From the NCBI GenBank assembly GCA_035632395.1, contig DASQGX010000138.1, positions 1-42,995 of the forward strand: a stretch of DNA of 42,995 nt, read 5' to 3'. This DNA comes from Stellaceae bacterium (GTDB taxonomy: Bacteria; Pseudomonadota; Alphaproteobacteria; ATCC43930; CGMCC-115725). The notes beneath the pieces were generated by a model. That model ran no database searches. It was not told the DNA's origin and saw nothing but the letters and a program-made list of their open reading frames with translations. Made by a program: the position numbers and the translations under genes. Below, piece by piece: positions 6,605 through 40,914 of this stretch; the first letter of the stretch is position 1, and every line of letters starts with the position of its first letter.

Positions 6605-7375
6605 TTAAGCGGCGCTTAAGGTGGCCGGTACCACCGCGGAGACCTCGTCAACCACAAGGCCGAATTGCTCGCGCAGCCCGGTTACGCCCGCTGGCGTCAC
6701 CCTTATGCCGCGCCCCCGCGGCCCGTTGCCGCGCTCGAGCCAACCGAGCGCCGTCAGCCGCGCCAACATCCGTACGCCCGCCGGTCCCGCCAGATGGTTG
6801 CGGCGTTCGGTCCAGTCGAGACATTTGCGCGCCATGCCGCGACGGTCAGGTTTCAGATCGTCGAGCGCGACGCCGAACGCAGCGAATCGTTCGCGGCCTT
6901 CTTGGGTAATGACGTAGCGCTCGTCGTCGCTGGCGATTTCGGACAGCCAGCGCTGCCGCACCAGCGCGTCCGCCAGCGCGACGCCGAGCCTGCCCGCAAT
7001 ATGGTCGTAACAGCTGCGCGCCGCGCGCAATTGCCGCGCCTGAGGCGAGCGTGGCGTTTCCAAGCTCTTCACCGGCGGCGCGAGGCCGGCGAGTCCTTCA
7101 AGCACGTGCGCGACTTCGGTGTTGGCGAGGCAATAGTAGCGATGCCGGCCGGCGCTGCGGAGCTTCAACAATCCGCCGGCGACCAGCTTGCCGAGATGGT
7201 TGCTCGCCGATTGCGCCGAGATGCCGGCGGCATAGGCAAGCGCAGTGGCTGGTTGGGCGCGGCCGTCGAGCAGCGCGACCAGGATCGCGGCGCGCGCCGG
7301 ATCGGCAATCAGTGCGGCAGGCACGGCGACATTGGCTTCCATAAGCGGCTCCGGCGGATGGGCGTGAGTCCACAC
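6605..7375 (-). CDS. ArsR/SmtB-type winged-helix regulator with a long duplicated C-terminal extension
   Basis: The N-terminal ArsR HTH is ADPARAAILVALLDGRAQPATALAYAAGISAQSASNHLGKLVAGGLLKLRSAGRHRYY. At 256 aa it is about twice the usual ArsR size. An alternative start is at 7342 (MEANVAV). It is divergent from the MFS gene. Confidence 0.75.
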   Translation of the reverse strand: MWTHAHPPEPLMEANVAVPAALIADPARAAILVALLDGRAQPATALAYAAGISAQSASNHLGKLVAGGLLKLRSAGRHRYYCLANTEVAHVLEGLAGLAPPVKSLETPRSPQARQLRAARSCYDHIAGRLGVALADALVRQRWLSEIASDDERYVITQEGRERFAAFGVALDDLKPDRRGMARKCLDWTERRNHLAGPAGVRMLARLTALGWLERGNGPRGRGIRVTPAGVTGLREQFGLVVDEVSAVVPATLSAA

Positions 7376-7396
7376 TATATGGCAACGCCGTGGAAT

Positions 7397-7416
7397 GTTT
7401 CACCCGCGGGTGAAAC
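7397..7416. promoter_or_regulatory. Perfect 20-bp palindrome, probable operator in the ArsR/MFS divergent intergenic region
   Basis: GTTTCACCCG|CGGGTGAAAC is perfectly self-complementary. It generates the mirror-image MFHPRVK ORF starts on both strands in the ORF track. Confidence 0.6.
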
Positions 7417-7448
7417 AATCAGACGCGCGCAGTCTCTATCGTCCGCGC

Positions 7449-8855
7449 ATGACCGACGAAAACGCTTCTTCCATGCGCGGTGTTGGGCGCGGTGTCGGCG
7501 CCGCGCTTGCGGCCGCCAGCCTCGGCTTCGGCCTGATCCAGCTCGATGTCACCATCGTCAACGTCGCGTTGCCGCGCATCGGGACGGAACTGCACGCGCC
7601 GGTCGACATGCTGCAATGGGTGGTGGACGCCTATGCATTGGTCTTTGCCGTGCTGCTGTTGAGCGCCGGCGTGCTCGGCGACCGTTCCGGTGCGCGGCGA
7701 ATTTTCCGCGCCGGTCTTGCGCTGTTCGCCATGGCCTCGCTCGGCTGTGGGTTTGCGCCTGGCACCGGTGCGCTGATCGCGATGCGGGCGGTGCAAGGTG
7801 CCGGCGCGGCGGCAATGCTGCCGGCCTCGCTGGCGCTGCTCAACCATGCTTGCCATCACGACGGTCGGCTGCGGGCGCGTGCCGTCGGCCTATGGACGGC
7901 CGCAGGCGGCGTCACCATCGCCGCCGGTCCGCTGATCGGCGGTTTGCTGATCGCAGCCGGCAGCTGGCGAACGATCTTTCTGGTCAATCTGCCGATCTGC
8001 GTTGTGGGCGCGTGGCTGACCACCCGCGTCGACGAAATCGAACGCGCGCCGCGCGCACCGCATTTCGATCTCGCCGGCCAAGTGTTGGCGATCGCGGCAC
8101 TGACCGGTCTGACTGGCGGTGTCATCGAACTGCGGCCGTTGGGTCTGGACCATCCGTTGGTGCTGGGCGGTTTCGCCGTTGCGCTGATCGCGGGCACCGC
8201 CTTCGTCCGCTGCGAGGCACGCAGCCCTGCGCCGATGTTGCCACTAAGTCTCTTCCGTCTGCCGAGTTTCAGTCCGGCAGTCGGCTTCGGCGTTCTCGCG
8301 AACCTGACTTATTACGGCATCGTTTTCGTGCTCAGCCTCTATCTCCAGCGTGTGCTCGGCTATAGCGCCTTCGCCGCCGGCTTGGCGTATTTGCCGCTGA
8401 CCGCGACCTTCATCGTCTCGAATGTCGCCAGCGGCTGGGTTATGGGTCGTGCCGGCACGCGCCGGCCGATGATCGCCGGCGCGCTGGTCGGTGCTGCCGG
8501 TTTCGCACTACTGCTCGGACTCGGAGCGGGCACGCCTTATTGGCGCATGCTGCCCGGCTTTGCGCCGATCCCGCTCGGCATGGGGTTGGCGGTGCCGGCG
8601 ATGACGACCACCATCCTGTCGGCAGTCGACAAGACCGCCTCAGGCGTCGCCGCGGCCGTCCTCAATGCCGCGCGCCAGGCCGGCGGCGCGATAGGCGTCG
8701 CACTGTTCGGTGCCTTTGCCGGCAACGGTCATATCGTCGCCGGCGTGCACGCAGCCGTGTTGACGGCGGTGGCGGCGATGCTGACGGCTGCCGGCCTGGC
8801 CGCCTGGGGCATCGCCGATCATCGGACCATCGCGCTGAGGCCGGAACGCGCCTGA
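7449..8855 (+). CDS. MFS transporter, DHA2 (EmrB/QacA-like, 14-TM) drug/proton antiporter family
   Basis: LGFGLIQLDVTIVNVALP near the N-terminus, LGDRSGARRIF (MFS motif A-like), and many TM segments. I moved the start from 7395 to the ATG at 7449 because 7395 lies inside the palindrome. Confidence 0.85.
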   Translation: MTDENASSMRGVGRGVGAALAAASLGFGLIQLDVTIVNVALPRIGTELHAPVDMLQWVVDAYALVFAVLLLSAGVLGDRSGARRIFRAGLALFAMASLGCGFAPGTGALIAMRAVQGAGAAAMLPASLALLNHACHHDGRLRARAVGLWTAAGGVTIAAGPLIGGLLIAAGSWRTIFLVNLPICVVGAWLTTRVDEIERAPRAPHFDLAGQVLAIAALTGLTGGVIELRPLGLDHPLVLGGFAVALIAGTAFVRCEARSPAPMLPLSLFRLPSFSPAVGFGVLANLTYYGIVFVLSLYLQRVLGYSAFAAGLAYLPLTATFIVSNVASGWVMGRAGTRRPMIAGALVGAAGFALLLGLGAGTPYWRMLPGFAPIPLGMGLAVPAMTTTILSAVDKTASGVAAAVLNAARQAGGAIGVALFGAFAGNGHIVAGVHAAVLTAVAAMLTAAGLAAWGIADHRTIALRPERA

Positions 8856-11174: not shown

Positions 11175-11720
11175 ATGCGTGCTGCCACCTATTCGCCTGT
11201 CGCCAAATCTTTGCACTGGCTCGTCGTCATCTTGATTGTGGCGCAGCTCGCGCTCGGTTGGCTGATGCCGGGCGCAAAGCGCACGACGCCGCCGGACGTC
11301 CTCAACAACTGGCACATGTCGATCGGCGTCATCATCCTGGCGGCGATCGTCATCCGCGCGCTATGGCGGCTATTCGCCGGCACGCCAACACCGGAGCCGG
11401 GACCGCGCTGGCAAATCGCCGCCGCCGAGGCGACGCATGTGATCCTTTATCTGCTGGTATTCGCGTTGCTGCTTAGCGGCTGGGCCGATGCCGTCGCGCA
11501 TAATTGGGTGATCACGCTGTTTTGGACTGTGAAATTACCGTCCGTGCTGCCGGCCGGCGCCGGCTGGGTACGCGCCGTCGGCGAACTCCATTCCGATATC
11601 GTCTGGGTCCTGCTCGGCCTGGTCGGGATGCACGTCGCGGCGGCGCTCGGCCACCATTTCATTCTCGGCGACAACGTGCTGCGCCGCATGCTGCCGGCAC
11701 GGACCGACGACCGCTCCTAG
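11175..11720 (+). CDS. Cytochrome b561 family (CybB-like) membrane protein
   Basis: YSPVAKSLHWLVVILIVAQLALGW and HMSIGVIIL, four TM helices with conserved His residues, and a C-terminal HHFILGDNVLRRML. Confidence 0.8.
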   Translation: MRAATYSPVAKSLHWLVVILIVAQLALGWLMPGAKRTTPPDVLNNWHMSIGVIILAAIVIRALWRLFAGTPTPEPGPRWQIAAAEATHVILYLLVFALLLSGWADAVAHNWVITLFWTVKLPSVLPAGAGWVRAVGELHSDIVWVLLGLVGMHVAAALGHHFILGDNVLRRMLPARTDDRS

Positions 11721-12940
11721 AGTCGCTCGCCGCGCACCAGCCGCGGCAGGTTGCCGCCGGCGCCCATGGCATGGCGCATCAGCGCCTTTTTCAACCGCGG
11801 CATGCGGTTGACCGCAGCCAAACCTAGATCACGCACCAGACCGACGCTTTTCAGATCGTTGGAAAAAAGCCGCGTCAGGCCGTCGGTGACGGCGGCGAGC
11901 GTCACCGCATCGAGACGCCGCCAACCTTCGTAGCGTGCCAGGAGATCGGCGGCGCCGACATCGAGGCCGAGCCGCCGCGCGTCCACCGTCAACTCGGCCA
12001 AGCTGGCGACGTCGCGCAAACTCAGGTTGAGCCCCTGGCCGGCGATCGGATGGATCGCGTGCGCCGCCTCGCCGACCAGCGCCAGCCGCGGCGCGGAATA
12101 GCGCTCGGCATGCAGGAACGACAGCGGATAGGACCAAACCGGTCCAGCGAGCGTGACTGCACCAAGGAAATCGCCGAAGCGGCGTTGCAGCTCGGCGGCG
12201 AACCGCTGTTTCGGCAAATCCAAGAGCTGTGGCGCGCGCTCGCGGCTTTCGGTCCAGACGATGGACGACCGATCGCCTGTCATCGGCAGGATCGCGAACG
12301 GACCGGACGGCCGGAAATGCTCGACCGCGACGCCGCGGTGCGGCTTTTCGTGCGCCACGCAGGCGACAATCGCGGTCTGGCGGTAATCCCAAGTCAGCGA
12401 CTTGATGCCGGCGTCTTGGCGCAACTTCGAATTCCGGCCGTCACAGGCGGCGACAAGACCGGCCTTGAGGCGCGATCCGTCGTCGAATTCGACCAGCGCC
12501 GCCGCACCGATGTCGCTCACACGTGCGACGCCAGCGGGCGCGATGTATTGCAGGTTGCGAAAGCTGCGCGCGCGCTCGTACAGCACGCGGCGCAGCAGGC
12601 CGTTCTCGACGATGAAGCCGAGCGGCTGATCGCCAATATCGGCGTGGTCGTAATGCAGGAAGAACGGCGAGCCGCCGTCGGCGACGCGGATCTCGAGAAT
12701 GGCGCCGGCGTGCGGTGCCAGCGCGTCCCAGACGCCGAGACCGGCCATCACCTGCTTCGAGCCATGCGCCAAGGCCGTGGTGCGCCCGTCGAACTTCGGC
12801 GCCAGCATGGTAGCGAGCGCGACACGGTCGATCAGCGCGACCTCGAGCCCACCGGCGGCGCAGGCGAGCGCCAGGGTGACGCCGGCCAGGCCGCCGCCGA
12901 CCACGGCGATTTCGACACGCGTCTCCGCCTTTGGCGCCAT
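11717..12940 (-). CDS. UbiH/UbiF/VisC/COQ6 family FAD-dependent ubiquinone-biosynthesis hydroxylase
   Basis: IAVVGGGLAGVTLALA (GxGxxG) and LVGEAAHAIHPIAGQGLNLSLRD. I moved the start from 13033 to the ATG at 12940 (MAPKAETRVEIAVVGGG). Its stop overlaps the cytochrome b561 stop within CTAG. Confidence 0.85.
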   Translation of the reverse strand: MAPKAETRVEIAVVGGGLAGVTLALACAAGGLEVALIDRVALATMLAPKFDGRTTALAHGSKQVMAGLGVWDALAPHAGAILEIRVADGGSPFFLHYDHADIGDQPLGFIVENGLLRRVLYERARSFRNLQYIAPAGVARVSDIGAAALVEFDDGSRLKAGLVAACDGRNSKLRQDAGIKSLTWDYRQTAIVACVAHEKPHRGVAVEHFRPSGPFAILPMTGDRSSIVWTESRERAPQLLDLPKQRFAAELQRRFGDFLGAVTLAGPVWSYPLSFLHAERYSAPRLALVGEAAHAIHPIAGQGLNLSLRDVASLAELTVDARRLGLDVGAADLLARYEGWRRLDAVTLAAVTDGLTRLFSNDLKSVGLVRDLGLAAVNRMPRLKKALMRHAMGAGGNLPRLVRGERL

Positions 12941-13001
12941 GGCGCGACAATGGCGGGGAAGCCACGCGCTGTCCAGGTGCGGCGGCGCCGCCGAGAAACG
13001 C

Positions 13002-13038
13002 AAAAAAATACCGGGGTGGGACCATCGCCCCACCCCGG
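13002..13038 (-). terminator. Rho-independent terminator of the amt gene
   Basis: On the minus strand: CCGGGGTGGG-8 nt loop-CCCACCCCGG, followed by TATTTTTTTG. It lies 22 nt after the stop. Confidence 0.75.
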
Positions 13039-13059
13039 TTCACTTGATCAATCGGTCGG

Positions 13060-14382
13060 CTATTCGCCTTCCGTGCCGATGGCGTAGGCAGTTTCGCCGT
13101 GCACCGCGTCGTCGCCCACCTTCAAAGTCGCGTCGTCCATGCGCAACGGCGTCACGAACGAGATGACTTTGAGGATGATGAACGTGGCGATGACGTTGTA
13201 GGCGATGATGAAGGCCGCGCCGTAGATCTGAAGCACGAATTGATGGATATCGCCGGTGTAGAACAGGCCGCTGATGCTGACGCCCGGCGCATCCTTGTCG
13301 GTGCCGATATATTGCAGCATCGCCGGATTGGCGAGGAGACCGGTCAACAGCCCGCCGGTGAGGCCGGCGACGCCGTGCGTCGAGAAGACGCTCAGCGTAT
13401 CGTCCACCCGCATCATCAGCTTCGTCTTCTGCAGCTTGTTCATCGCCAGCCACGGAATGATGCCGGCGCAGATGCCGATGACGATGGCGCCCAAGCCGTC
13501 GACGTAACCGGCGGCGGGCGTGATCGCTACCAAGCCGGCGATCATGCCGTTGACCGCACCGATGACGGACGGCTTGCCGTAAGCCATCTTGTCCATCAGC
13601 GTCCAAACCAGCAGACCGACGGCGGTCGCCGTGTTGGTGTTGAGCACCGCGGCGCCCGCGTCGGCATTGGCGAAGTACGGATCGCCGCCGTTGAAGCCGT
13701 TCCAGCCGATCCACAGGATGCCGGCGCCGACCAGGGTCACCAGCAGGCTATTGGGCGGGAAGCTCTCGCGGTCCTGCTTCAGCCGCGGACCGACCATCGC
13801 GGCGGCGACGAAGCCGGACGAGGCCGCCGCAAGATGGATGACGTATCCGCCCGAGAAGTCGGCCACGCCCATGCTCGCCAGCCAGCCGCCGCCCCACAGG
13901 CTGAACGCGCCCACGGTGTAGACAAAAGTCATCCACAGCGGACAGAACAGCACCCAGGCGCAGAAGCTCATGCGGCCCAAAACCGAGCCGGCAAGGATGA
14001 TCACCGTGATCGCGGCGAACACGAACTGGAAATACATCAGCGTCGACATCGGGAACGCCAACGGCGGCATGCCCGATGCGGCGGCGGGAATCGTCGCCTG
14101 GCCTAAGGTGAAGCCGGCGGAGATCGCGAGGCTCGGCGTACCGAGGAACGGCAGCCATTGCGGCCCGAACGCCATGTTGTAGGCGAACAGGACCCAGACG
14201 ACGAGCACCGAGGCAAAGGCGTACATCGACATGAAGGCGGAGTTGATCGCCCACTTCTTCTTGACGATACCGCCATAGAGCACCACCAGGCCGGGAATGC
14301 TCTGCAAGCCGACGAAAGTCGCGGCGGCCAATTGCCATGCATTGTCGCCGGTATCCAACCATTTGGGTGACGGAACGAGCAT
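13060..14382 (-). CDS. amt: Ammonium transporter (Amt/MEP/Rh family), paralogue 1
   Basis: DNAWQLAAATFVGLQSIPGLVVLYGG, DFSGGYVIHLAAASSGF, WIGWNGFNGG, FSTHGVAGLTGGLLTG, and a C-terminal GDDAVHGETAY. Confidence 0.9.
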   Translation of the reverse strand: MLVPSPKWLDTGDNAWQLAAATFVGLQSIPGLVVLYGGIVKKKWAINSAFMSMYAFASVLVVWVLFAYNMAFGPQWLPFLGTPSLAISAGFTLGQATIPAAASGMPPLAFPMSTLMYFQFVFAAITVIILAGSVLGRMSFCAWVLFCPLWMTFVYTVGAFSLWGGGWLASMGVADFSGGYVIHLAAASSGFVAAAMVGPRLKQDRESFPPNSLLVTLVGAGILWIGWNGFNGGDPYFANADAGAAVLNTNTATAVGLLVWTLMDKMAYGKPSVIGAVNGMIAGLVAITPAAGYVDGLGAIVIGICAGIIPWLAMNKLQKTKLMMRVDDTLSVFSTHGVAGLTGGLLTGLLANPAMLQYIGTDKDAPGVSISGLFYTGDIHQFVLQIYGAAFIIAYNVIATFIILKVISFVTPLRMDDATLKVGDDAVHGETAYAIGTEGE

Positions 14383-14446
14383 CGAAGACCCCCCTGTTGG
14401 GTTGCGAGGCAGCAGGAAACTTTTGGGGCACGGTCAACCGGGCCCG

Positions 14447-14465
14447 GGTGACCGCACGGGTCACC
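14447..14465 (-). promoter_or_regulatory. Perfect 7-bp inverted repeat just downstream of the sigma-54 promoter (operator or 5'-UTR hairpin)
   Basis: GGTGACC-GCACG-GGTCACC, located between the promoter (14481-14495) and the amt start (14382). Confidence 0.4.
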
Positions 14466-14480
14466 GCCGTCCCAGCAGAG

Positions 14481-14495
14481 GCAACCCGCGTGCCA
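14481..14495 (-). promoter_or_regulatory. Sigma-54 (RpoN) -24/-12 promoter for amt
   Basis: The minus strand reads TGGCAC-GCGGG-TTGC, a perfect match to TGGCAC-N5-TTGC, about 100 nt upstream of the amt start codon. Confidence 0.65.
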
Positions 14496-14718
14496 ATGGC
14501 GCGGCGCCGCCGATTCACGGCGGTCGACTTCCGTGTCGCCGCCAGCGCATGGTCAAACGTGCGCGCTCTGACCATAAAAACGGCAGCCTGCGCACGGATC
14601 GGGCACCGTGGCATCGCCGCGGACGCGTACAGCCCGGTCGCCCGGCCGTGGCCCGCGGCGTGCTTTGCACGGCAGCGGGATTTGGCTATGGATCGAATCC
14701 GTCGAAAGAGGGGCAGCC

Positions 14719-15051
14719 ATGTTCACCCGCCGGCACGTCGGACCGCTCGCCGGGCTGGCTGTCGGCCTGCTGGGGTTTGCCGCTGCGGCCGCGGCGCAGC
14801 CGGCCGCTACCGTCATGCGCTGCACCAATCCGGCCAGCGGCGCGACCTGGCAGATCCATATCGATTTCGCGCAGGGTACTGTCGACGCCAACGCTGCCCG
14901 GATCAGCGACGACGAGATCGCTTGGCACGACGCCGAGGACGGCGGTAATTACACGCTCGACCGCAAGACCGGCAAGCTGACCGTGATCGTCGCGTCCAGC
15001 ACCGGCGGCTATTTTCTCCATGATCGCTGCACGCCCGACAAAGCCGACTGA
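14719..15051 (+). CDS. Small secreted protein of unknown function (110 aa, signal peptide, two Cys)
   Basis: MFTRRHVGPLAGLAVGLLGFAAAAAAQP is signal-peptide-like. GAAAGAGGGG lies upstream of the ATG. The gene sits 26 nt upstream of the PP2C-kinase gene. I re-set the track start from 14608. Confidence 0.6.
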   Translation: MFTRRHVGPLAGLAVGLLGFAAAAAAQPAATVMRCTNPASGATWQIHIDFAQGTVDANAARISDDEIAWHDAEDGGNYTLDRKTGKLTVIVASSTGGYFLHDRCTPDKAD

Positions 15052-15077
15052 CGCGGCGCAGCGGCGCAGAGGCGGCG

Positions 15078-16784
15078 ATGGCTGAGCGCGTCGCGGGCGT
15101 CGAGGCCAGCGTCGGTTTCAGTTCCGAAACCGGGCCGCGGCCGCGCAACGAGGATTTCGCCGGCGTCGTCTTCGGCGCCGAGCTGCCGGTGCCGCGCCGC
15201 GACGTGGTCGCGGCGATCTCCGACGGTATCGGTGGCGCCAAAGGCGGCCGCGTCGCCGCCGAAATCGCCGTACGCGGTTTCCTCGACGGCTTTTGCGATC
15301 TGCCCGAAACCATGGAAGTGCGCCGCGCGGCGGCGCGGATCGTCGACTCGCTCAACAGCTGGTTATTTGCGCAGGCGCGCCACGATCCCGAGCTGACGCG
15401 CATGGGTTGCACCTTCACCGCCTTGGTGCTGCGCGGCCGTGTCGTTCACGTCCTGCATGCCGGCGACAGCCGCGCTTACCGGCTCCGCGGTGACCGCTTG
15501 GTGCGGCTCACCGCCGATCACGTGCGCGACGACGGCAGCGGCCGCTCGCATATCCTGACCCGTGCGCTCGGTGTTGAGACCGAGGTGCGTCTCGATTACG
15601 CCAGCCAGCCAGTGGCGCTGCACGATCGGTTTCTCTTGTGCAGCGACGGCGTGCACGGCGCGCTGAGTGAGGACGGCATCGCCGACATCCTGCGCGAGCG
15701 CTCGGCGCCGGGTGATACGGCGCGGGCGCTGGTTGCTGCGGCGTTGCAGGCCGGCAGCGGTGACAATTGCACCGCTTTGGTGCTCGACGTCGTCCGCTTG
15801 CCGAGCGCAGATTCGGCCGATATCGGCGCGCCAATCCTGCAGCTGCCGCTGATCCCGGTGCCGGTTACGGGCGAGACGGTCGACGGTTTCGTGCTCAAAG
15901 CGCTGGTGTCCGAAGGCCGCTATAGCCGCCTGTTCGGCGCGGTCGATGAGATCGACGGCGGCGAAGTGGTGCTGAAATTCCCCAAGCCGCAAGTCGCCGA
16001 GGTGGCAACCTACCGCGCCGCCTTCATCCGCGAGGCCTGGGTCGGCGCTCGCGTCAACAGCCCATGGGTCGGCCGCGTCATCGAACTGCCGCCAGGGCGC
16101 CAAACCTGTCTCTACACCGTCATGCCGCTTTATCAGGGCGAGCTGCTGGAGACGCGCTTGGCGCGGCCGCCGGCGCTCGGCCTCGAGGAAGGCCGCGCGA
16201 TCGCCGCCAAGCTGGCGCAGGGTGCGGCGGCGCTGCACCGCGCCGGAATCATCCATCGCGACATCAAGCCCGATAATGTCATTCTCGAAGCCGGCGGCGC
16301 GCTCAAGCTGATCGATCTCGGCGTGGTGCGCATTCCCGGCCTGGAAGATTTTCCGCCCTCGGATATCCCTGGCACTGCCGCCTACATGGCGCCCGAGATG
16401 TTCGCCGGCGAAGCCGGCAACGTCGCGACCGACATCTATGCCCTCGGCGTCACCCTCTTCCGCGCCTTCACCGGCGAATTCCCGTACGGCAACGCCGACG
16501 CGACCAGCCCGCCACGCCGCGACCGGCCAAAGGAGCTTACGACGCTGCGGCCGGATTTGCCGGCGTGGCTGCAAGCGGCGCTCAGCCGCGCTATCGCCCG
16601 CGATCCCGTGGAGCGGTTTCGGGACATGAGCGAATTCGCCGGCGAGATGGAGGCGGGTCCGGTGCGGCTGGCAACGCCGGTCCGCCGGCCGCAAACCTTA
16701 CTCGAGCGCGCGCCGGTGCGGTTCTGGCAAGGCGTTGCCGTGATCCTTGGGTTGGCGTTGCTGGCGGCCTTGGCCCTGCGCTAA
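15078..16784 (+). CDS. Fused PP2C-type Ser/Thr phosphatase and Hanks-type Ser/Thr protein kinase with a C-terminal TM anchor
   Basis: PP2C motifs: NEDF, SDGIGG, GDSRAY, CSDGV, GDNCT. Kinase motifs: VVLKFPK, HRDIKPDNVIL, DLG, TAAYMAPE. The C-terminal hydrophobic helix is FWQGVAVILGLALLAALAL. Confidence 0.9.
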   Translation: MAERVAGVEASVGFSSETGPRPRNEDFAGVVFGAELPVPRRDVVAAISDGIGGAKGGRVAAEIAVRGFLDGFCDLPETMEVRRAAARIVDSLNSWLFAQARHDPELTRMGCTFTALVLRGRVVHVLHAGDSRAYRLRGDRLVRLTADHVRDDGSGRSHILTRALGVETEVRLDYASQPVALHDRFLLCSDGVHGALSEDGIADILRERSAPGDTARALVAAALQAGSGDNCTALVLDVVRLPSADSADIGAPILQLPLIPVPVTGETVDGFVLKALVSEGRYSRLFGAVDEIDGGEVVLKFPKPQVAEVATYRAAFIREAWVGARVNSPWVGRVIELPPGRQTCLYTVMPLYQGELLETRLARPPALGLEEGRAIAAKLAQGAAALHRAGIIHRDIKPDNVILEAGGALKLIDLGVVRIPGLEDFPPSDIPGTAAYMAPEMFAGEAGNVATDIYALGVTLFRAFTGEFPYGNADATSPPRRDRPKELTTLRPDLPAWLQAALSRAIARDPVERFRDMSEFAGEMEAGPVRLATPVRRPQTLLERAPVRFWQGVAVILGLALLAALALR

Positions 16785-16849
16785 CCGCGCAAATCCTGAA
16801 GCGGAATCACACTGCCTAAAATTTAATCAGCGTCAATAATGCTGACTAA

Positions 16850-16902
16850 GAATCCGGCAGCTTTTGCTTATCCACAGGGCAAATCGCCTGGAATCCGGCG
16901 GC
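16850..16902 (+). repeat. Direct repeat GAATCCGGC(A/G)GC x2, 41 bp apart, upstream of the amtB promoter candidate
   Basis: Copies at 16850-16861 and 16891-16902. Each is followed by a CTTTTGC / CTTTGC element. Confidence 0.3.
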
Positions 16903-16920
16903 CGATGCGGCTTTGCAGGA

Positions 16921-16935
16921 TGGCACGAATCTTGA
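16921..16935 (+). promoter_or_regulatory. Candidate sigma-54 promoter for amtB (imperfect -12 element)
   Basis: TGGCAC-GAATC-TTGA. The -24 element is perfect, and the -12 element is TTGA rather than TTGC. It lies 68 nt upstream of the ATG at 17003. Confidence 0.35.
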
Positions 16936-17002
16936 GTTCGGAAAGGCGGCCCACCCGCTTGGGGGGAGCCGTGCTTTGGCCCATCGGGAAAGGTTTCACC
17001 CT

Positions 17003-18454
17003 ATGTCTTGGAATTCGCCGTTCGCTTCATGGATGCGAAGCGCCCTCCGGCTGGTGCCGGTGGTCGCGTTCGTGCTGCTGCTGCCGCTGATGGCAGCGCA
17101 CGCGCAACAGGCCGCGCCCGCCACGCCGGGGCCGGCCGCCGCCGCACCGGTCGCCGCTGCACCGGCGGCACCGCCGGCGCCGCCCGCTTGCGGCGGCAAG
17201 GTGCTGACGAAATGCACCCCCGATTCCGGCGACAGCGCCTGGATGCTGGCGTCGGTCGCACTGGTGCTGATGATGACGGTGCCGGGCCTCGGCCTGTTCT
17301 ATGGCGGCATGGTGCGCAAGAAGAACGTCGGCGACACGGTGATGACGAGTTTCTTCATCACCTGCCTGGTGACGGTGCTGTGGGCGGTGTGCAACTACAG
17401 CTTCGCGTTCCGCGCCGGCACGCCATTCATCGGCGGCCTCGATCGCGCCTTCCTGCAAGGCATGCTGAGCGACATCTCGAACAACACGGGCAATCCCAAT
17501 CCGCTGGCGCCGACGATTCCCGAGACTGTCTACATGTGCTTCCAGATGACGTTCGCGATCATCACGCCGGCGCTGATCGCCGGTTCGTTCGCGGAGCGCA
17601 TGAAGTTCTCGTCGATGTGCGTGTTCATCGCGCTGTGGGCGACGATCGTCTACGCGCCGGTCGCGCACTGGGTGTGGGGGCCGGATGGCTTCCTCAACAG
17701 CAGCAACGACGCCGCGCCCATCAAGGTCCTCGACTTCGCCGGCGGCACTGTCGTGCACATCAATTCCGGCGTTGCCGGCTTGATGACGGCGCTGATGCTC
17801 GGCAAGCGCAAGGATAGCGGACCGGCGCACAACGTCGTGCTGACCTTCATCGGCGCTTCGCTGCTGTGGGTCGGCTGGTTCGGCTTCAATGCCGGCTCGG
17901 CGGTCTCAGCCGGCATGCAGGCCGGCATGGCGATGACCGTGACGCAGATCGCCACCGCGATGGCGGGCCTAACGTGGATGTTCGTCGAATGGGCGCTGCG
18001 CGGCAAACCCACCGTGATCGGCATCTGCTCCGGCGCGGTCGCCGGTCTGGTCGCAATCACGCCAGCTTCGGGCTTCGTCGGTCCGGTTGGCGCGCTGGTG
18101 ATCGGAGCAGCAGCGGGCGTGATCTGCTACTGGGGTGCCACCGGGCTCAAGCATGCGTTTGGCTATGACGACGCGCTCGACGCCTTCGGCGTCCATGCGG
18201 TCGGCGGGATCACCGGCGCGTTGCTCACCGGCGTCTTCGCCATCCAGCAATATGGCGGCACGCCCGGCCTGATCGAAGGCAACGCGATGCAGGTCGTCAA
18301 CCAGGCCGAAGGCATCCTCATCGTCCTGGCCTACGACGCCATCGTCACCCTGATCCTGCTCAAGGTGATCGATGTGGTGATGGGCCTGCGCGTCGAGGAA
18401 GAGATCGAACGCGACGGCCTCGACCTCGCCTTGCACGGCGAGATCGTCCAGTAA
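17003..18454 (+). CDS. amtB: Ammonium transporter AmtB-type, paralogue 2, with a long Ala/Pro-rich N-terminal extension
   Basis: DSAWMLASVALVLMMTVPGLGLFYGG, DFAGGTVVHINSGVAGL, LWVGWFGFNAGS, DAFGVHAVGGITGALLTG, and a C-terminal GLDLALHGE. I re-set the start from TTG 16913 to ATG 17003. Confidence 0.9.
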   Translation: MSWNSPFASWMRSALRLVPVVAFVLLLPLMAAHAQQAAPATPGPAAAAPVAAAPAAPPAPPACGGKVLTKCTPDSGDSAWMLASVALVLMMTVPGLGLFYGGMVRKKNVGDTVMTSFFITCLVTVLWAVCNYSFAFRAGTPFIGGLDRAFLQGMLSDISNNTGNPNPLAPTIPETVYMCFQMTFAIITPALIAGSFAERMKFSSMCVFIALWATIVYAPVAHWVWGPDGFLNSSNDAAPIKVLDFAGGTVVHINSGVAGLMTALMLGKRKDSGPAHNVVLTFIGASLLWVGWFGFNAGSAVSAGMQAGMAMTVTQIATAMAGLTWMFVEWALRGKPTVIGICSGAVAGLVAITPASGFVGPVGALVIGAAAGVICYWGATGLKHAFGYDDALDAFGVHAVGGITGALLTGVFAIQQYGGTPGLIEGNAMQVVNQAEGILIVLAYDAIVTLILLKVIDVVMGLRVEEEIERDGLDLALHGEIVQ

Positions 18455-18481: not shown

Positions 18482-18510
18482 GGGGCGGCGCAAGCCGCCC
18501 CTTTTCTTTC
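18482..18510 (+). terminator. Rho-independent terminator of amtB
   Basis: GGGGCGGC-GCAA-GCCGCCCC followed by TTTTCTTTC. Confidence 0.8.
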
Positions 18511-18584: not shown

Positions 18585-18980
18585 TCAGCTTTGCGCTCTG
18601 GACTTGTTCAGGGTCACGGCGGCGCGCACGAGCGTCTTCAATGCCTTCTCGTTTATTTTCCCGCCTTCGTGGAAATCGATGGCACGCCTTGTGTTGCCGT
18701 CAAGACTGGCATTGAAGAGGCGCGAAGGGTCCTCCAGGGCCGCTCCTTTGGCGAAGGTCATCTTCACGACGTTCTTGTACGTCTCGCCGGTGCAGATCAG
18801 TCCGGCGTGCGACCAAACCGGAACCCCTCGCCACTTCCACTCCTCGACGATTTCGGGGTCGGCTTCCTTGATCAAGGTACGGAGCCGGCTGAGCATTTTG
18901 CCGCGCCAATCGCCGAGCTCCCTGATTCTCGCGTCGATCAGCTGAGAAGGAGACTTGCCTTTCTGGGACGCGCTCTTCAT
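18585..18980 (-). CDS. DUF1801 (YdhG-like) domain protein
   Basis: IRELGDWRGKMLSRLRTLIKEADPEIVEEWKWRGVPVWSH...MTFAKGAAL. ATG at 18980 is preceded by GGAGAGA. The track start at 19040 is a TTG. Confidence 0.75.
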   Translation of the reverse strand: MKSASQKGKSPSQLIDARIRELGDWRGKMLSRLRTLIKEADPEIVEEWKWRGVPVWSHAGLICTGETYKNVVKMTFAKGAALEDPSRLFNASLDGNTRRAIDFHEGGKINEKALKTLVRAAVTLNKSRAQS

Positions 18981-19156
18981 GCCCGTCTCTCCTCGTTGTT
19001 TCCGAGGCTTTGATAAGGACCTGCTGGCACCTGTTGCCAATAGGCCTTAACCGCTGTCTTACGGTTGCTTCCTTGGCGATCCTCGACTCTTAGCGTATGA
19101 TTAACCGGTTATCCCCGGGAATCACAGAGTTTTCCCCCGATTTTAGGGACCGCGCC

Positions 19157-21490
19157 ATGGTAAGCATCGATGCCGGCCGCAGCCGGACCCGCGCCCGCGA
19201 AGGCATCCATTGGCCGCGCTTGGCGGTGCGTCTGATCGGCGGTTTGGTGCTGCTGGCGGCGCTGTTCGTCGGCCTGGCGCTGGCCAGTTACGACCGGCAC
19301 GACCCGTCTTGGAACCATGCCGTAAGCGGCCCGGTCTTGAACCTGATGGCGCTGCCCGGCGCACAGCTGGCCGATGCGCTGTTACAAGCCTTCGGTGCGG
19401 CCGCCGTGCTGGTGCCGTTGTTCTTGGCCGATTGGGCGGCGCGCCTGCTGACGCGTTATGGCCTGCGCCGCTTCTGGCTCAAGCTGCTGCTGGCGCCGTG
19501 GACTGTGCCGCTGGCGGCGCTGGCCTTGTCGATCCTGCCGTCGCCGTGGTGGTGGCCGATTCGGTCCGGCATCGGCGGCTTCGTCGGCCAGCTCGCGCGC
19601 CAGGGTGCCGGTCATCTCGATATTGCGCCGCCACTGTCGGCGATGGCCGCCGCCGCGCTGGTCGGCACCATTCTTCTCTATGTCTTCGGCGCGTCGGCGA
19701 GCAGCCGCGCCGCGCGCGCGCCGCGCCAGAAACCGGCGAGCATGGGTGCACGCCTCTTCGGCTGGCTGCCGCGGCCGCACTTGCCGCGCTGGCGCCGCGT
19801 TGCCGTCGATCGTCCGGTCGCGCTCGAGACCGGACCGCGGCGCGAGCCGCTACTGCTCGATGCGACCGGTGCCGATAGCTTCGACGAGGACGCGGTCGAG
19901 ACACCACCGCGCCGTTCGGCCGCAGTCGATCTGCCGCCGCGCGAGCGCAAGGTGAAGCGGCTGCGCCAAGCGTCGCTCGCGCTCGAAGCCGCCGATCAGG
20001 TGCTGCCGTCGCTCGAGCTGCTCGCGGAAGTACCACCGACACGCACTGCCGCGGTCAACGAGGAAGCCTTGCAGCAGAACGCGCGCCTCCTCGAATCGGT
20101 GCTGGAGGATTTCGGCGTCCGCGGCCAGATCGTCAAAGTCCGGCCCGGCCCGGTGGTCGCGCTTTACGAGCTCGAACCCGCCGCCGGTATCAAGGCTTCG
20201 CGCGTCATCGGCCTAGCCGACGACATCGCTCGCTCGATGAGCGCGCTGTCGGCGCGCGTCGCGGTTATCCCCGGCCGCTCGGTGCTCGGCATCGAGCTGC
20301 CGAATGCGCGTTCCGAGATGGTGTTTCTGCGCGAATTGCTGGCGTCCGAGGCCTACGAGCATAGCAGCGCCAAGCTGCCGTTGGTGCTCGGCAAGGACAT
20401 CGGCGGCGCGCCGGTGATCGCCGATCTCCAGCGCATGCCGCATCTGCTGATCGCTGGCACCACCGGCTCCGGCAAGTCGGTCGGCATCAACACGATGATT
20501 CTGTCGGTCCTCTATCGGTTGTCGTCGGACCAGTGCAAGTTCATCATGATCGATCCGAAGATGCTTGAGCTGTCGATGTACGACGGCATTCCGCATCTGC
20601 TGGCGCCGGTCGTCACCGAGCCCCGCAAGGCGGTCGTCGCGCTCAAATGGACGGTGCGCGAAATGGAGAACCGCTATCGCGCCATGTCCAAGCTCGGCGT
20701 GCGCAACATCGAGGGCTACAACCAGCGCATCGCCGAAGCCAAGGCCAAAGGCGAGGTGCTGATGCGCCGAGTCCAGACCGGCTTCGACGAGGAATCAGGT
20801 CGCCCGGTGTTCGAGGAGCAGCCGCTGTCGAACGAGCCGCTGCCGCTCATCGTCGTCGTCGTCGACGAGATGGCCGATCTCATGCTGGTCGCCGGCAAGG
20901 ACATCGAGCATGCCGTGCAGCGCCTGGCGCAAATGGCACGCGCCGCCGGCATCCACATCATCATGGCGACGCAACGGCCGTCGGTCGATGTCATCACCGG
21001 CACGATCAAGGCGAACTTCCCGACGCGCATCAGCTTCCAGGTCACCAGCAAGATCGACAGCCGCACCATTCTCGGTGAGGCCGGCGCCGAGCAGCTTCTG
21101 GGCCGCGGCGACATGCTGCACATGGCCGGCGGCGGCCGCATCACCCGCGTCCACGGCCCGTTCGTCTCCGACCAGGAAGTCGAATCCGTCGTCCGCTTCC
21201 TCAAGGAAAACGGACCGCCGCCGACCTATCTCGAGGACGTCACCGCCGACGAAGAGGACGAGATGGCGGCTTTCGCCGAAGACGGCGAAGGCTCGGGCGA
21301 TCAGCTTTACGATCAAGCGGTCAACCTGGTGCTGCGCGAACGCAAGGCCTCGACCAGCTTCGTCCAGCGACACCTGCAAATCGGCTATAACCGCGCCGCG
21401 CGCATCATCGAGCGCATGGAGAGCGAAGGTGTCATCAGCGCCGCAAACCATGTCGGCAAGCGCGAGGTCTTGGGCCGCGGCCGCGACTGA
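19157..21490 (+). CDS. ftsK: DNA translocase FtsK
   Basis: N-terminal TM helices and a Pro/Arg-rich linker. The motor domain has GTTGSGKSV (Walker A) and VVVVDEMADL (Walker B). The C-terminal gamma wHTH is SFVQRHLQIGYNRAARIIERMESEGVIS. Confidence 0.92.
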   Translation: MVSIDAGRSRTRAREGIHWPRLAVRLIGGLVLLAALFVGLALASYDRHDPSWNHAVSGPVLNLMALPGAQLADALLQAFGAAAVLVPLFLADWAARLLTRYGLRRFWLKLLLAPWTVPLAALALSILPSPWWWPIRSGIGGFVGQLARQGAGHLDIAPPLSAMAAAALVGTILLYVFGASASSRAARAPRQKPASMGARLFGWLPRPHLPRWRRVAVDRPVALETGPRREPLLLDATGADSFDEDAVETPPRRSAAVDLPPRERKVKRLRQASLALEAADQVLPSLELLAEVPPTRTAAVNEEALQQNARLLESVLEDFGVRGQIVKVRPGPVVALYELEPAAGIKASRVIGLADDIARSMSALSARVAVIPGRSVLGIELPNARSEMVFLRELLASEAYEHSSAKLPLVLGKDIGGAPVIADLQRMPHLLIAGTTGSGKSVGINTMILSVLYRLSSDQCKFIMIDPKMLELSMYDGIPHLLAPVVTEPRKAVVALKWTVREMENRYRAMSKLGVRNIEGYNQRIAEAKAKGEVLMRRVQTGFDEESGRPVFEEQPLSNEPLPLIVVVVDEMADLMLVAGKDIEHAVQRLAQMARAAGIHIIMATQRPSVDVITGTIKANFPTRISFQVTSKIDSRTILGEAGAEQLLGRGDMLHMAGGGRITRVHGPFVSDQEVESVVRFLKENGPPPTYLEDVTADEEDEMAAFAEDGEGSGDQLYDQAVNLVLRERKASTSFVQRHLQIGYNRAARIIERMESEGVISAANHVGKREVLGRGRD

Positions 21491-22294: not shown

Positions 22295-23080
22295 GTGCCG
22301 AACGAACCCGTCCCGCAATCCGTGCGCACCGCGCCCCTGGTCGGCGTGCAATGCTGCACGCGGCCGCTACGCGGCCAGCCAACGCACGCGGTCGTCGAGA
22401 AATATATTCGTGCCATTCTTGAAGGTGCTGATGCGGTGCCGTTGCTGGTGCCCGCCCTCGACGATATAGCGCCGGAGGCCTTGGTGGCGCAGCTCGACGG
22501 CCTGTTGCTGCCCGGTTCACGCTCGGACGTCGGCCCGGAGCATTACGGCGGGCCGCCGCCGGCGCCAGAGCGCGAAACCGATCCGGCGCGCGACAGTGCC
22601 GCCCTGCCGCTGATCCGCGCGGCGCTCGCTGCCGATCTTCCAGTGCTGGCGATCTGTCGCGGCATCCAGGAGGTCAATGTCGCCCTCGGCGGCACATTGC
22701 ATCCGGCGGTGCACGCCGTCTCTGGCCGCCTCGATCATCGCGCCGAGCCCGACCTGCCGCTCGACGAACGCTATGCCTACGATGCACACGATGTGCGTCT
22801 CGCGCCCGGCGGCCTTTTCGCGACGCTTGTCGGCGCTGAGACCGTCGCGGTCAACTCGCTGCATTACCAGGGTATCGACCGGCTGGCGCCGGGACTCATT
22901 GTCGAGGCCACCGCTCCCGATGGCCAGATCGAAGCCGTGCGCGCACCGGCAGCGCGTTTCTTCGTCGGCGTGCAATGGCATCCCGAGCACCGTGCCGGCG
23001 ACAACGCATTCTCGCGCGCCCTGTTCCGCGCTTTCGGCGAAGCCTGCCGCGCGCACGCGGCGCGCCGTGTCGGCGCATGA
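22295..23080 (+). CDS. Gamma-glutamyl-gamma-aminobutyrate hydrolase family (PuuD-like, peptidase C26, class I glutamine amidotransferase fold)
   Basis: VLAICRGIQEVNVALGG (nucleophile Cys) and GVQWHPE (His/Glu). Confidence 0.8.
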   Translation: MPNEPVPQSVRTAPLVGVQCCTRPLRGQPTHAVVEKYIRAILEGADAVPLLVPALDDIAPEALVAQLDGLLLPGSRSDVGPEHYGGPPPAPERETDPARDSAALPLIRAALAADLPVLAICRGIQEVNVALGGTLHPAVHAVSGRLDHRAEPDLPLDERYAYDAHDVRLAPGGLFATLVGAETVAVNSLHYQGIDRLAPGLIVEATAPDGQIEAVRAPAARFFVGVQWHPEHRAGDNAFSRALFRAFGEACRAHAARRVGA

Positions 23081-24009
23081 ACGACGGCTTCTGGTCGCTC
23101 GCCGACGCCGATGCCGTCTTCACCGTCGCGACCCCGGACGGCGCGCTGCTGCCCGTGAACGAGCTGCATTCGCGCGGCGCGGCCGGAGCGGCGCTGCTGC
23201 TGGGTCACGCCAACGGCCTGCCGGCCGGCTCTTACGCTCCGTGGCTCACGGATCTCGCGCGCGACGTCCATGTTTTCGCCTTCGATGCGCGCGGCCATGG
23301 CGGTGCGACGTGGCCGGCCGGTCCGCTCGACCAGGTCTTTCACGTCGATCGCTTTGCCGACGATTTGCGGCTTGTCGCCGAAGCGGTGATTGCGCGCCTC
23401 GGCGCGACGCCGCTGTCCTATGTCGGCCACTCGCTCGGCGGCGCGGCGGCGCTCGATCTTGCCGCCGCTGGCCGGCTGCCCGATTTTACCGGCGTGATGC
23501 TGCTCGAGCCGCCGGTGTTTCCGCCGCTGGACTCGCCGGTGCGCGCCGAAGCCGAAGCCCGCCAGACGCTCCTGGTTGAAGGCGCCAAGCGCCGCCGCGC
23601 CGATTGGCCGAGCATCAAGGCGTTCCATGAGCGGCTCAAAAACGGCAACAGCCCGTTCACGCGCTTCGCACCGGAGATGCTCGACGCACATTGCCGCGCG
23701 GCGCTTAAACCCAAAGCCGACGGCAGCTTCACGCTCGCCTCGCCGCCCGAGGTCGAATCCGCGATCTTCACCGCCCATCGCCACAGCGATACCTGGTCGC
23801 GTCTCGACCGGATCGAACGTCCGCTCGATCTCGTCGGCGGCGATCCCAATCGTCCTGATCGCGACTGGGTCGCGCGCGCCATGCCGGAGATGGCACGGCG
23901 GATGAAGCGCGCGCGGCTGACCCCGCTCGCCGGCATCGGCCATCTGATGATCCAGGAAGATCCGGCGCGGTTGCTGGCGCTGGTGCGGCGCTGGCTCGGA
24001 TGTGCCTGA
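23077..24009 (+). CDS. Alpha/beta hydrolase fold protein
   Basis: YVGHSLGGAAAL nucleophile elbow (GxSxG) and a C-terminal GIGHLMIQEDP. ATGA overlap with the upstream gene. I re-set the track start from 22975. Confidence 0.8.
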   Translation: MNDGFWSLADADAVFTVATPDGALLPVNELHSRGAAGAALLLGHANGLPAGSYAPWLTDLARDVHVFAFDARGHGGATWPAGPLDQVFHVDRFADDLRLVAEAVIARLGATPLSYVGHSLGGAAALDLAAAGRLPDFTGVMLLEPPVFPPLDSPVRAEAEARQTLLVEGAKRRRADWPSIKAFHERLKNGNSPFTRFAPEMLDAHCRAALKPKADGSFTLASPPEVESAIFTAHRHSDTWSRLDRIERPLDLVGGDPNRPDRDWVARAMPEMARRMKRARLTPLAGIGHLMIQEDPARLLALVRRWLGCA

Positions 24010-24159
24010 TTCCGGCATGCGGCGCGTGCGTCTTTTGCATGCCTCAGGCCTCCAAATCGCCCGGATCGCTCCCTAACTAATTTGCAGAAGCTGTCCGCAG
24101 TTTGCTGTGGATAGGCCGGGGGGCCGCATAAGACCCTTCGACTCCTCAAACGGACTTCG

Positions 24160-25184: not shown

Positions 25185-25212
25185 TAAGGTCTATTCTATA
25201 GACCTATAGAAT
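25181..25212 (+). promoter_or_regulatory. AT-rich promoter/operator: two overlapping perfect palindromes
   Basis: GGTCTAT-TCT-ATAGACC (25188-25204) overlaps ATTCTATAG-AC-CTATAGAAT (25193-25212). A possible -35 TTGATA (25181-25186) and -10 TATAGA (25205-25210) are 18 nt apart. The element lies about 20 nt upstream of the di-iron gene start. Confidence 0.55.
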
Positions 25213-25232
25213 TGAAGCCGAGGACGCGGATT

Positions 25233-38108: not shown

Positions 38109-38122
38109 GTTTCGTCTGTTCC

Positions 38123-40820: not shown

Positions 40821-40849
40821 GCTGTTCTCCGTGCTCCCACTCTTTTGGT

Positions 40850-40889
40850 CCGACAGGGTTACGCGCCTTTCATTGCGCTTTTATGACAG
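40850..40889 (-). promoter_or_regulatory. Candidate Pho box upstream of pstC
   Basis: The minus strand reads CTGTCAT-AAAA-GCGCAAT-GAAA-GGCGCGT-AACC-CTGTCGG, i.e. 7-nt units with 11-nt phasing. The outer units match the CTGTCAT consensus and the inner units are poor. Confidence 0.35.
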
Positions 40890-40914
40890 TCGGCCCGAAT
40901 CGCGGGCACTGGCC

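Follow-up and report, generated by a model that had tools for sequence, protein, structure and literature searches.

Proposed control of an ammonium channel by a kinase/phosphatase fusion

What does a protein kinase joined to a protein phosphatase do between two ammonium transporter genes, and could it control the channels beside which it is encoded? This question is raised by a 42,995-bp stretch of DNA from a Stellaceae bacterium (contig DASQGX010000138.1, here called the window, which is one entire contig). A gene for an ammonium transporter (Amt1; positions 13060-14382, minus strand; 440 amino acids (aa), without a signal peptide) is divergent from the genes for a small secreted protein (14719-15051, plus strand; 110 aa) and a fusion of a PP2C phosphatase to a Hanks-type Ser/Thr kinase (15078-16784, plus strand; 568 aa), which are followed by a gene for a second transporter (Amt2; 17003-18454, plus strand; with a signal peptide). 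The control of ammonium channels in bacteria is textbook PII/GlnK biology, and, to our knowledge, plants and fungi are the only organisms whose Amt channels are known to undergo Ser/Thr phosphorylation.

An earlier note on this DNA, made from the sequence alone, had described the 110-aa signal-peptide protein and the 568-aa protein between two Amt genes, whose coordinates we confirm, and had proposed that a kinase/phosphatase switch acts on the ammonium channels in place of or in addition to PII. As described below, the conserved unit is a trio consisting of Amt1, the small protein and the fusion, not a bracket of two Amt genes. The linkage of the trio across many soil bacteria suggests that phosphorylation can act as a switch of ammonium uptake in bacteria, as it does in plants and fungi.

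Three genes are conserved together in several gene orders

A genome scan with one genome per species yielded 80 loci (L001-L080), all from metagenome-assembled genomes (MAGs), in which the fusion is 74-94% identical to the query. These MAGs are labelled Stellaceae (Rhodospirillales), Xanthobacteraceae, Roseiarcus, Methylovirgula, Rhodomicrobium and Hyphomicrobiaceae. Every locus with at least 2.3 kb of sequence 5' of the fusion gene (64 of 64) carries an Amt1-type gene within 3 kb, as well as the gene for the small protein. A survey of the neighbourhoods of fusion orthologues, which the earlier note had proposed, thus finds an Amt gene adjoining in all 64 related loci and a transporter gene in 21 of 22 plasmid and chromid contexts. 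The surroundings of the trio are diverse: the 69 right flanks fall into 31 clusters and the 62 left flanks into 24, and in three loci (L104-L106) the trio sits between genes for a phosphodiesterase and an acyl-CoA carboxylase. In trio loci the module proteins are better conserved than their housekeeping neighbours; for example, Amt1 and the fusion of locus L009 are 86% and 78% identical to those of the window, whereas FtsK is 55% identical.

The strongest evidence here that the trio genes work together comes from the order in which they occur. In two MAGs labelled Steroidobacteraceae (L100 and L101), the small-protein gene and then the fusion gene are followed by a convergent Amt gene, whose product shares 83-85% identity with Amt1, and the genes around the trio are unrelated. 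Distant relatives of the small protein, which are 39-51% identical among themselves, were represented by eight fetched loci. The genes of L108 are co-directional in the order Amt, fusion, small protein (75%, 62% and 45% identical to those of the window, respectively), L112 has the order Amt, small protein, fusion, the fragments L109-L111 are compatible with the L108 and L112 orders, and L113 and L114 display the divergent arrangement of the window. The trio is preserved in no fewer than four gene orders, and the MAGs that carry it bear the labels of three orders in two classes (Alpha- and Gammaproteobacteria). These genes have been inherited and moved together, and we consider it very probable that the three are functionally linked.

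Three further observations concern the distribution and makeup of the trio. The fusion is 73-94% identical over MAGs of three orders and two classes (L001-L080, L100, L101), which suggests horizontal spread. Names of MAGs and samples (SPRUCE peat, palsa/bog, Roseiarcus, Methylovirgula), along with the acidophile relatives of Amt1 described below, suggest acidic soils and peat as the characteristic setting of the module. Finally, an extra gene of 127-129 aa with no Pfam match is called on the minus strand in L100 (9991-10374) and L101 (9835-10224), where it lies between the Amt and fusion genes and overlaps the 3' end of the latter; it could represent either a fourth component of the module or an erroneous gene call.

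The fusion is a tail-anchored enzyme from a family encoded beside transporters

The fusion is matched by the Pfam models Pkinase (E=3.2e-29) and PP2C_2 (E=5.8e-13), with the PP2C domain at residues ~20-240 and the kinase domain at residues ~270-530. Its sole hydrophobic segment is a C-terminal transmembrane (TM) helix at residues 545-568, which is preceded by the juxtamembrane motif ERAPVRFWQ, and the protein ends in ...LLERAPVRFWQGVAVILGLALLAALALR. Kinase residues K300, E319, H393, D395 and N400 are present along with the DLG and APE motifs, as are the PP2C metal-binding Asp residues. An alignment of 23 family members, which covers 27-100% identity, shows no variation at the catalytic residues of either domain. 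The complete PP2C and Hanks motif sets and the single C-terminal TM helix that the earlier note had read from the sequence are therefore borne out, and the profile search it had suggested returned Ammonium_transp, PP2C_2 and Pkinase alike. Among solved structures, the best relatives are the kinase domains of PknA and PknB (E=8.5e-27 for PknA) and the phosphatase PstP (E=7.8e-18). The NCBIfam models for Stp1 and Stk1 match the fusion below their cut-offs.

This protein represents the Amt-linked branch within a well-defined family that carries the NCBI name "bifunctional protein-serine/threonine kinase/phosphatase", for which we found no dedicated NCBIfam or Pfam model. A tblastn survey of annotated plasmids and chromids returned 42 records with 25-55% identity, nearly all annotated with this name, and 22 non-redundant contexts were examined, with unannotated records mapped by tblastn. 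A NarK/MFS, FNT or APC gene adjoins the fusion gene in 21 of these 22 contexts, so the association with nitrate-assimilation transporter genes that the earlier note had put forward proves to be real. The transporter gene is immediately upstream and co-directional in 17 contexts (12 FNT, four NarK-type MFS and one APC permease), with gaps of 1-92 nt in 13 annotated records; the NarK-type partners are from Methylocystis, Catenovulum, Thioclava and Vibrio, and the APC partner is from Burkholderia. Four further contexts have a NarK/MFS or FNT gene that is divergent, convergent or ~2 kb away (Skermanella, Azospirillum thermophilum, a Comamonadaceae plasmid and Shewanella), and the only context without a nearby transporter gene is a fusion copy flanked by insertion sequences (IS) in Acidithiobacillus caldus. 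Other common neighbours are nirBD, assimilatory nitrate reductase (nas) and cynS, and the transporter linkage of the wider family extends over Alpha-, Beta- and Gammaproteobacteria. Nearly all of the 22 other members examined end in the same manner, with the motif ERNPxxFWQ, then 17-20 hydrophobic residues and the stop codon, and this tail is retained over the range of 27-100% identity.

Two groups of contexts are of interest in their own right. Pairs of FNT and fusion genes recurrently adjoin cynS (Acinetobacter, L085; Sulfitobacter, L096 and L115; Psychrobacter, L097). Some of the plasmids are small and mobilisable, and the gene pair seems to be mobile; cyanate or nitrite may be the substrate of the FNT partner. 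In a plasmid of Burkholderia sp. PAMC 26561 (L083), the fusion gene follows genes for the APC-family permease and an FMN-binding protein of the glutamate-synthase family. The APC partner indicates that the fusion family extends beyond inorganic-nitrogen transporters.

Amt1 belongs to a divergent subfamily with trio-specific Ser/Thr residues

Both transporters retain the pore-histidine contexts quoted in the earlier note, as judged from profile matches and alignments. Amt1 matches Pfam Ammonium_transp (PF00909) with E=1.1e-89 and 301 bits (cut-off 23.2) and TIGR00836 with 374 bits (cut-off 343). Its score on the canonical AmtB equivalog model NF007947 is 250 bits, under the cut-off of 657, and it is only ~35% identical to Amt2, Escherichia coli AmtB (EcAmtB) and most plasmid-borne Amts. 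Pore residues were read from alignment to EcAmtB and Archaeoglobus fulgidus Amt-1; the twin pore histidines (EcAmtB H168/H318), D160, W148 and the F107/F215 Phe gate are kept in Amt1 and Amt2. Amt1 has Asp for S219, the residue of the periplasmic recruitment site, and Asn for F213, inside the motif GWNGFNGGDPYF, which is invariant among 67 Amt1 orthologues.

In the plasmid collection only two proteins are close relatives of Amt1, those of A. caldus (64% identity) and Acidiphilium multivorum (62%), which are acidophile proteins that both carry GWNGFNGGDPYF. The A. caldus gene has a PII gene (glnK) directly upstream, within an ntrC-glnA cluster. Members of the Amt1 subfamily can therefore be PII-coupled, and that glnK position is empty in the trio lineage.

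These two proteins also served as an outgroup for identifying residues specific to the trio. Compared with the two outgroup sequences, six positions are Ser or Thr only in the 72 trio-linked Amts, a set that includes the divergent L108 protein. Two of the six, Ser212 and Thr431, are cytoplasmic by alignment to the AmtB topology, and both are Ser or Thr in 72 of 72 trio-linked Amts, L108 included. Ser212 is located at the end of the loop between TM helices 5 and 6 (TM5-6 loop), where the outgroup and AmtB have Asn. Thr431 is part of the C-terminal sequence HGETAY, three residues past its His (H428); the outgroup reads HGEEAY, E. coli AmtB has Asn and Amt2 has Ile. A Thr in place of the Glu found outside the trio would fit what is expected of a phospho-switch, given an outgroup of two sequences.

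Other candidate phosphorylation sites were eliminated. In Arabidopsis AtAMT1;1, T460 precedes the His of the HGG/HGE motif by two residues. The alignment of GDDAVHGETAY puts Ala426 at the equivalent position of Amt1. Thr419 is not conserved in L108 and L109, and the glnK-linked protein of A. caldus has it as well. The Amt1 protein ends at residue 440, 12 residues past H428, so its tail of ~30 aa has no long Mep2-like extension, and alignments of Amt1 to Mep2 structures end at residue 433-434.

A separate observation concerns the A. caldus megaplasmid NZ_CP005987.1. The Amt1-type gene with glnK directly upstream (L102, 39570-41267) and the IS-flanked fusion gene (L087, 160110-161801), the latter near glnT and glutamate-synthase-like genes, are ~120 kb apart on this replicon. 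The two genes are thus unlinked, and neither L102 nor L087 has a small-protein gene.

A small periplasmic protein is found only with the Amt-linked fusions

The 110-aa protein carries a single N-terminal hydrophobic segment (residues 6-26) followed by an AxA/Ala-rich cleavage region and a mature all-beta domain of ~75 aa between invariant Cys35 and Cys104. Its invariant motifs are CTNPxSG, TVD, WHD, DGGNYTLDR and SSTGGYF, and 23 positions are invariant in 55 sequences, including the two end Cys residues, two Trp, several Asp and the SSTGG run. AlphaFold (AF2) models a seven-strand beta domain with a predicted local distance difference test (pLDDT) score >90 over residues 30-100. The sequence has no Pfam or NCBIfam match, and a Foldseek comparison of the fold with the PDB gave no significant neighbour (best E-value 0.19).

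A 90%-clustered protein collection contains 1,256 homologues, some from Steroidobacteraceae (Gammaproteobacteria) MAGs, and a profile search of 1.8 billion representatives returned 243 relatives, essentially all short secreted proteins (~70-200 aa), some of which bear lipobox-like signal peptides. A 3,594-aa match in the latter search (P0272) was discarded as a repeat artefact. None of 21 NarK/FNT/APC-linked or non-trio loci tested (L081-L099, L102, L103) contains a homologue. The small protein is an obligatory third component of the module, not a bystander. Hardly any of the fusion reaches the periplasm, and the small protein accompanies Amt-linked fusions only, so the likely partner of the small protein is the side of Amt1 that faces the periplasm. 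It is speculation that the small protein binds ammonium or has a function related to pH.

Amt1 and the fusion appear to be expressed from different promoters

A near-consensus sigma-54-type -24/-12 element, TGGCACGCGGGTTGCC, is present at 14480-14495 (minus strand), which places it 98-113 nt 5' of the Amt1 start codon. Of 74 orthologous loci, 62 have an equivalent element with at most one mismatch that is directed toward Amt1, whereas only one of the 74 has such an element on the other strand. The pattern is not enriched window-wide (25 matches versus 19 expected), and the Amt1 element draws its weight only from its position and its cross-locus conservation. Promoters of this class are typical of nitrogen-limitation genes, and Amt1 is thus probably induced by nitrogen limitation. 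Directly 3' of the Amt1 stop codon is a strong terminator-like hairpin (13010-13039, minus strand; 13 base pairs, then a T-run), which suggests that Amt1 is transcribed on its own. The small-protein open reading frame (ORF) is preceded by a GAGG Shine-Dalgarno sequence, and the fusion gene, whose ATG follows the small-protein stop codon after 26 nt, has its own AGAGG. A scan with the NtrC-site consensus gave matches at chance number and none in intergenic regions, and a scan for sigma-70 promoters gave no sites.

The 5' untranslated region (UTR) of Amt1 contains an inverted repeat, GGTGACCCGTGCGGTCACC (~14449-14467, minus strand), which is downstream of the sigma-54 element and ahead of the start codon. 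This repeat could form a regulatory hairpin or bind a protein.

Amt2 and PII in relation to the trio

Amt2 is of the AmtB type (Ammonium_transp, E=6.3e-116 and 388 bits; TIGR00836, 436 bits) and keeps S219, yet its NF007947 score of 386 bits is also below the cut-off of 657. Its ORF can be extended 5' to a TTG at 16913, a weaker sigma-54-like element with two mismatches (TGGCACGAATCTTGAG; 16921-16936, plus strand) lies ~70 nt 5' of the gene, and a terminator-like hairpin (18482-18501, plus strand) is found 3' of it. The gene is part of an amtB-ftsK-lolA chromosomal backbone. It directly adjoins the fusion gene in L004, L005 and L044, is ~0.4 kb away in L049 and L077 and 2.6-3.8 kb away in L002, L003 and L007, and is missing from most other loci. 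Because this adjacency is limited to the closest relatives, synteny rules out Amt2 as a member of the module, and the two-Amt bracket that the earlier note had treated as a unit dissolves.

The note had also remarked that no PII-like ORF precedes either amt gene. This observation holds for the entire contig, over which E. coli GlnK and GlnB as tblastn queries gave no match better than E=3.6, and glnK is likewise absent beside Amt1 in most trio loci. In five loci (L035, L063, L065, L071 and L073), a second amt gene followed by glnK adjoins the trio; in L065 (5963-9180, minus strand), Amt1, amt and glnK follow one another on one strand, and the second Amt is AmtB-like and ~66% identical to Amt2. 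These five pairs suggest a division of labour, with the AmtB type under PII and the Amt1 type linked to the kinase. Because some trio genomes keep an amt-glnK pair nearby, the kinase/phosphatase would work alongside PII, not strictly in its place, and the stronger proposal of the note that the kinase substitutes for PII goes too far.

How might the fusion act on Amt1?

From these comparisons we infer that phospho-gating of Amt1 is the best-supported mechanism. The fusion would sit beside the transporter in the membrane and reversibly phosphorylate its cytoplasmic face, the best candidate sites being Thr431 (C-terminal region) and Ser212 (TM5-6 loop), and the phosphorylation state would open or close the channel quickly according to nitrogen status. 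Contact between the C-terminal region and the TM5-6 loop controls gating in AmtB, plant AMT1 and Mep2, and for canonical AmtB quick control of the channel by nitrogen status is performed by GlnK. The best-supported role of the fusion would therefore be control of Amt1 that is analogous to that of GlnK in function and to that of the plant and fungal kinases in mechanism. The small periplasmic protein might be an Amt1-specific accessory on the periplasmic face of the channel, where it could serve as a sensor, a modulator or an ammonium-recruiting factor. We consider the chances to be about even that this whole statement is correct, namely that the trio is a three-component ammonium-uptake module in which the fusion reversibly phosphorylates Amt1 directly. 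With regard to the switch proposed by the earlier note, the tie to Amt1 is supported (64 of 64 loci, at least four gene orders), whereas the tie to Amt2 has not survived because adjacency is unconserved.

Several points weigh against direct phospho-gating. First, the literature searched holds no report of transporter phosphorylation by the fusion family. Second, the partner transporters of this family have four unrelated folds, such that a common mode of recognition is not obvious, and the conserved tail motif cannot be specific to one partner. Third, the trio-specific residues are defined against an outgroup of two sequences only. Fourth, the fusion TM helix leaves almost nothing in the periplasm, so the small protein could be linked to the kinase only indirectly. 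Fifth, no locus has a sigma-54 element with at most one mismatch for the operon of small protein and fusion. Finally, glnK is next door in some trio genomes, and PII may still act on Amt1.

If four folds are hard to reconcile with one substrate-recognition mode, they are more easily explained as signal sources than as substrates each. The transporter might therefore be the sensor, with substrate flux or occupancy of Amt1 (or of NarK or FNT elsewhere) governing the fusion, which would transmit the signal by phosphorylating cytoplasmic targets such as PII, regulators of glutamine synthetase or transcription factors instead of the transporter. A fusion that has one TM helix, nothing periplasmic and no sensor domain of its own would be well suited to such a task, and Amt-histidine-kinase fusions are known from anammox bacteria; 6eu6 and 8qj3 are distant Amt matches. 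However, no downstream target is conserved nearby, where the flanks are unrelated, the trio-specific cytoplasmic Ser/Thr residues of the Amt fit a substrate role, and the tethering of both catalytic domains favours a membrane substrate. We regard this arrangement as unlikely, although it fares best among the alternatives to direct phosphorylation of Amt1.

The nitrogen-metabolism genes near the wider family bring up another scheme, in which the fusion acts on nitrogen assimilation generally, for example on PII, and shares a regulon with Amt1 in the absence of physical coupling. The genes nas, nirBD, cynS and glutamate-synthase-like genes are frequent beside wider-family members, and amt-glnK pairs adjoin the trio in five loci. 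Moreover, phosphorylation of PII and its dephosphorylation by a PP2C enzyme are established in cyanobacteria, where the PP2C protein PphA performs the latter reaction. Such a scheme does not readily account for the immediate transporter-then-fusion order with gaps of 1-92 nt, which points to a stoichiometric partnership, nor for the persistence of the trio in flanks without any nitrogen genes, and Amt1 and the small-protein/fusion operon appear to use different promoters. We therefore find it a little less plausible than a sensing transporter.

More improbable again is a version in which the fusion replaces GlnK for both Amt1 and Amt2, in a genome that lacks PII control of ammonium transport. 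No PII gene is present in the 43-kb window, Amt2 is directly 3' of the fusion gene with no terminator detected between them, and the A. caldus relative with glnK upstream indicates that glnK was lost from the Amt1 lineage. Nevertheless, Amt2 is preceded by a separate sigma-54-like element and does not share the trio-specific Ser/Thr residues, its adjacency is restricted to the closest relatives, and other trio genomes have an amt-glnK pair adjoining the trio. Lastly, the possibility that adjacency is mere synteny inherited within a recently diverged clade, as might be thought from the 75-94% identity to the query and the same divergent arrangement in most of the 80 loci, is very remote and is already contradicted by the rearranged loci, given the widely differing flanks, the at least four gene orders over three orders in two classes, and the transporter linkage of the wider family across Alpha-, Beta- and Gammaproteobacteria.

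Relation to known systems

The nearest counterparts of the fusion are the kinase/phosphatases of nas clusters, which are 27-55% identical to it, have the same PP2C domain, Hanks kinase, ERNPxxFWQ motif and TM anchor, and are likewise encoded by a nitrogen-source transporter. Their partner is NarK or FNT and is encoded upstream in the same operon, whereas the partner here is an Amt protein encoded divergently, and the module of the window adds a dedicated small periplasmic protein. One member of this family is ppkB of Pseudomonas, of which P. aeruginosa PA1782 is presumably the equivalent. The genome paper for Pseudomonas sp. UW4 notes the arrangement nasA-ppkB-nasDEC and speculates on phosphorylation of the transporter (PMC3596284), and PA1782 is only listed, as a third Ser/Thr kinase of P. 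aeruginosa (PMC8560001). The literature searched contains no functional study of the family, and a P. putida preprint on random barcode transposon-site sequencing (RB-TnSeq) does not mention the gene. In summary, the fusion family is already known to annotation pipelines and its location in nas clusters has been remarked on, whereas we found no description of the Amt-linked branch, the obligatory periplasmic partner, the divergent Amt subfamily or the trio-specific candidate phosphorylation sites.

With AmtB-GlnK, the trio would share the problem of fast and reversible Amt shut-off, and Amt1 keeps the C-terminal region and the pore architecture; the proposed regulator here is a pair of covalent-modification enzymes, whereas GlnK is a plug protein. 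The proposed logic is the same as that of plant AMT1 (C-terminal Thr460, CIPK23) and fungal Mep2 (Npr1), where the target of a Ser/Thr kinase is the cytoplasmic C-terminal region or the TM5-6 loop of an Amt trimer. Regulation of the Mep2 type uses a long C-terminal extension with an autoinhibitory region that bears the phosphorylation site. Amt1 differs in that it has Ala at the T460-equivalent position and lacks such an extension, and in that its putative kinase and phosphatase are fused, membrane-anchored and encoded beside the channel.

The best sequence matches to the two domains of the fusion, PknB-PstP, Stk1-Stp1 and PknA, are separate proteins with extracellular PASTA or other sensors after a mid-protein TM helix, and they control the cell wall and division. 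In contrast, the fusion unites both enzymes in one tail-anchored chain without a sensor domain. In anammox proteins of the Ks-Amt5 type, an Amt is likewise coupled to a signalling kinase, but there it is a non-transporting Amt covalently fused to a histidine kinase, whereas the trio consists of separate proteins with a Hanks kinase and an intact Amt pore.

A broader proposal is that tail-anchored PP2C-kinase fusions are a general proteobacterial phospho-switch for NarK, FNT, APC and Amt transporters, and that the trio is the first bacterial case of Amt phospho-gating, with a hitherto unseen periplasmic partner. We advance this tentatively, with the balance of probability somewhat against it. 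If it is true, it would explain the long-known rapid shut-off of nitrate and nitrite uptake by ammonium in heterotrophic bacteria, the phospho-gating of the trio Amt would have evolved independently of CIPK23 in plants and Npr1 in fungi, and the periplasmic partner could be an ammonium-binding or pH-sensing accessory adapted to acidic soils.

The comparisons delimit a module of three genes, widespread among Proteobacteria of peat and soil, and the named sites Thr431 and Ser212 make bacterial Amt phospho-gating testable. They also place this module in a much larger family encoded beside nitrate, nitrite/cyanate and amino-acid transporters, Pseudomonas included, such that several routes of nitrogen uptake could share one post-translational control. 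The Amt1 subfamily, with Asp at the S219 site, and its fold-orphan periplasmic protein may reveal how cells capture ammonium at low pH.

Other features of the window

A gene for a UbiH-like flavoprotein (11717-13033, minus strand; identified by Pfam scan) lies on the far side of Amt1. Beyond Amt2 are a DUF1801 gene (18585-19040, minus strand) and an FtsK gene (19097-21490, plus strand) followed by LolA. A phosphate-regulon cluster at 36667-42987 (minus strand), which has no relation to Amt1 or the fusion, encodes a PhoB-like response regulator, PhoU, PstB, two Pst permeases and a PhoR-like PAS-histidine kinase. Four long ORFs have no Pfam match at E<=1e-5 (44-2602 and 6665-8365, plus strand; 22864-24018 and 25191-27323, minus strand). 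The sequence is 66% G+C, and some of these ORFs are probably wrong-strand or wrong-frame artefacts; the second of them is overlapped by an MFS transporter gene (7395-8855). The 852-aa ORF at the 5' end of the window may be a real orphan.

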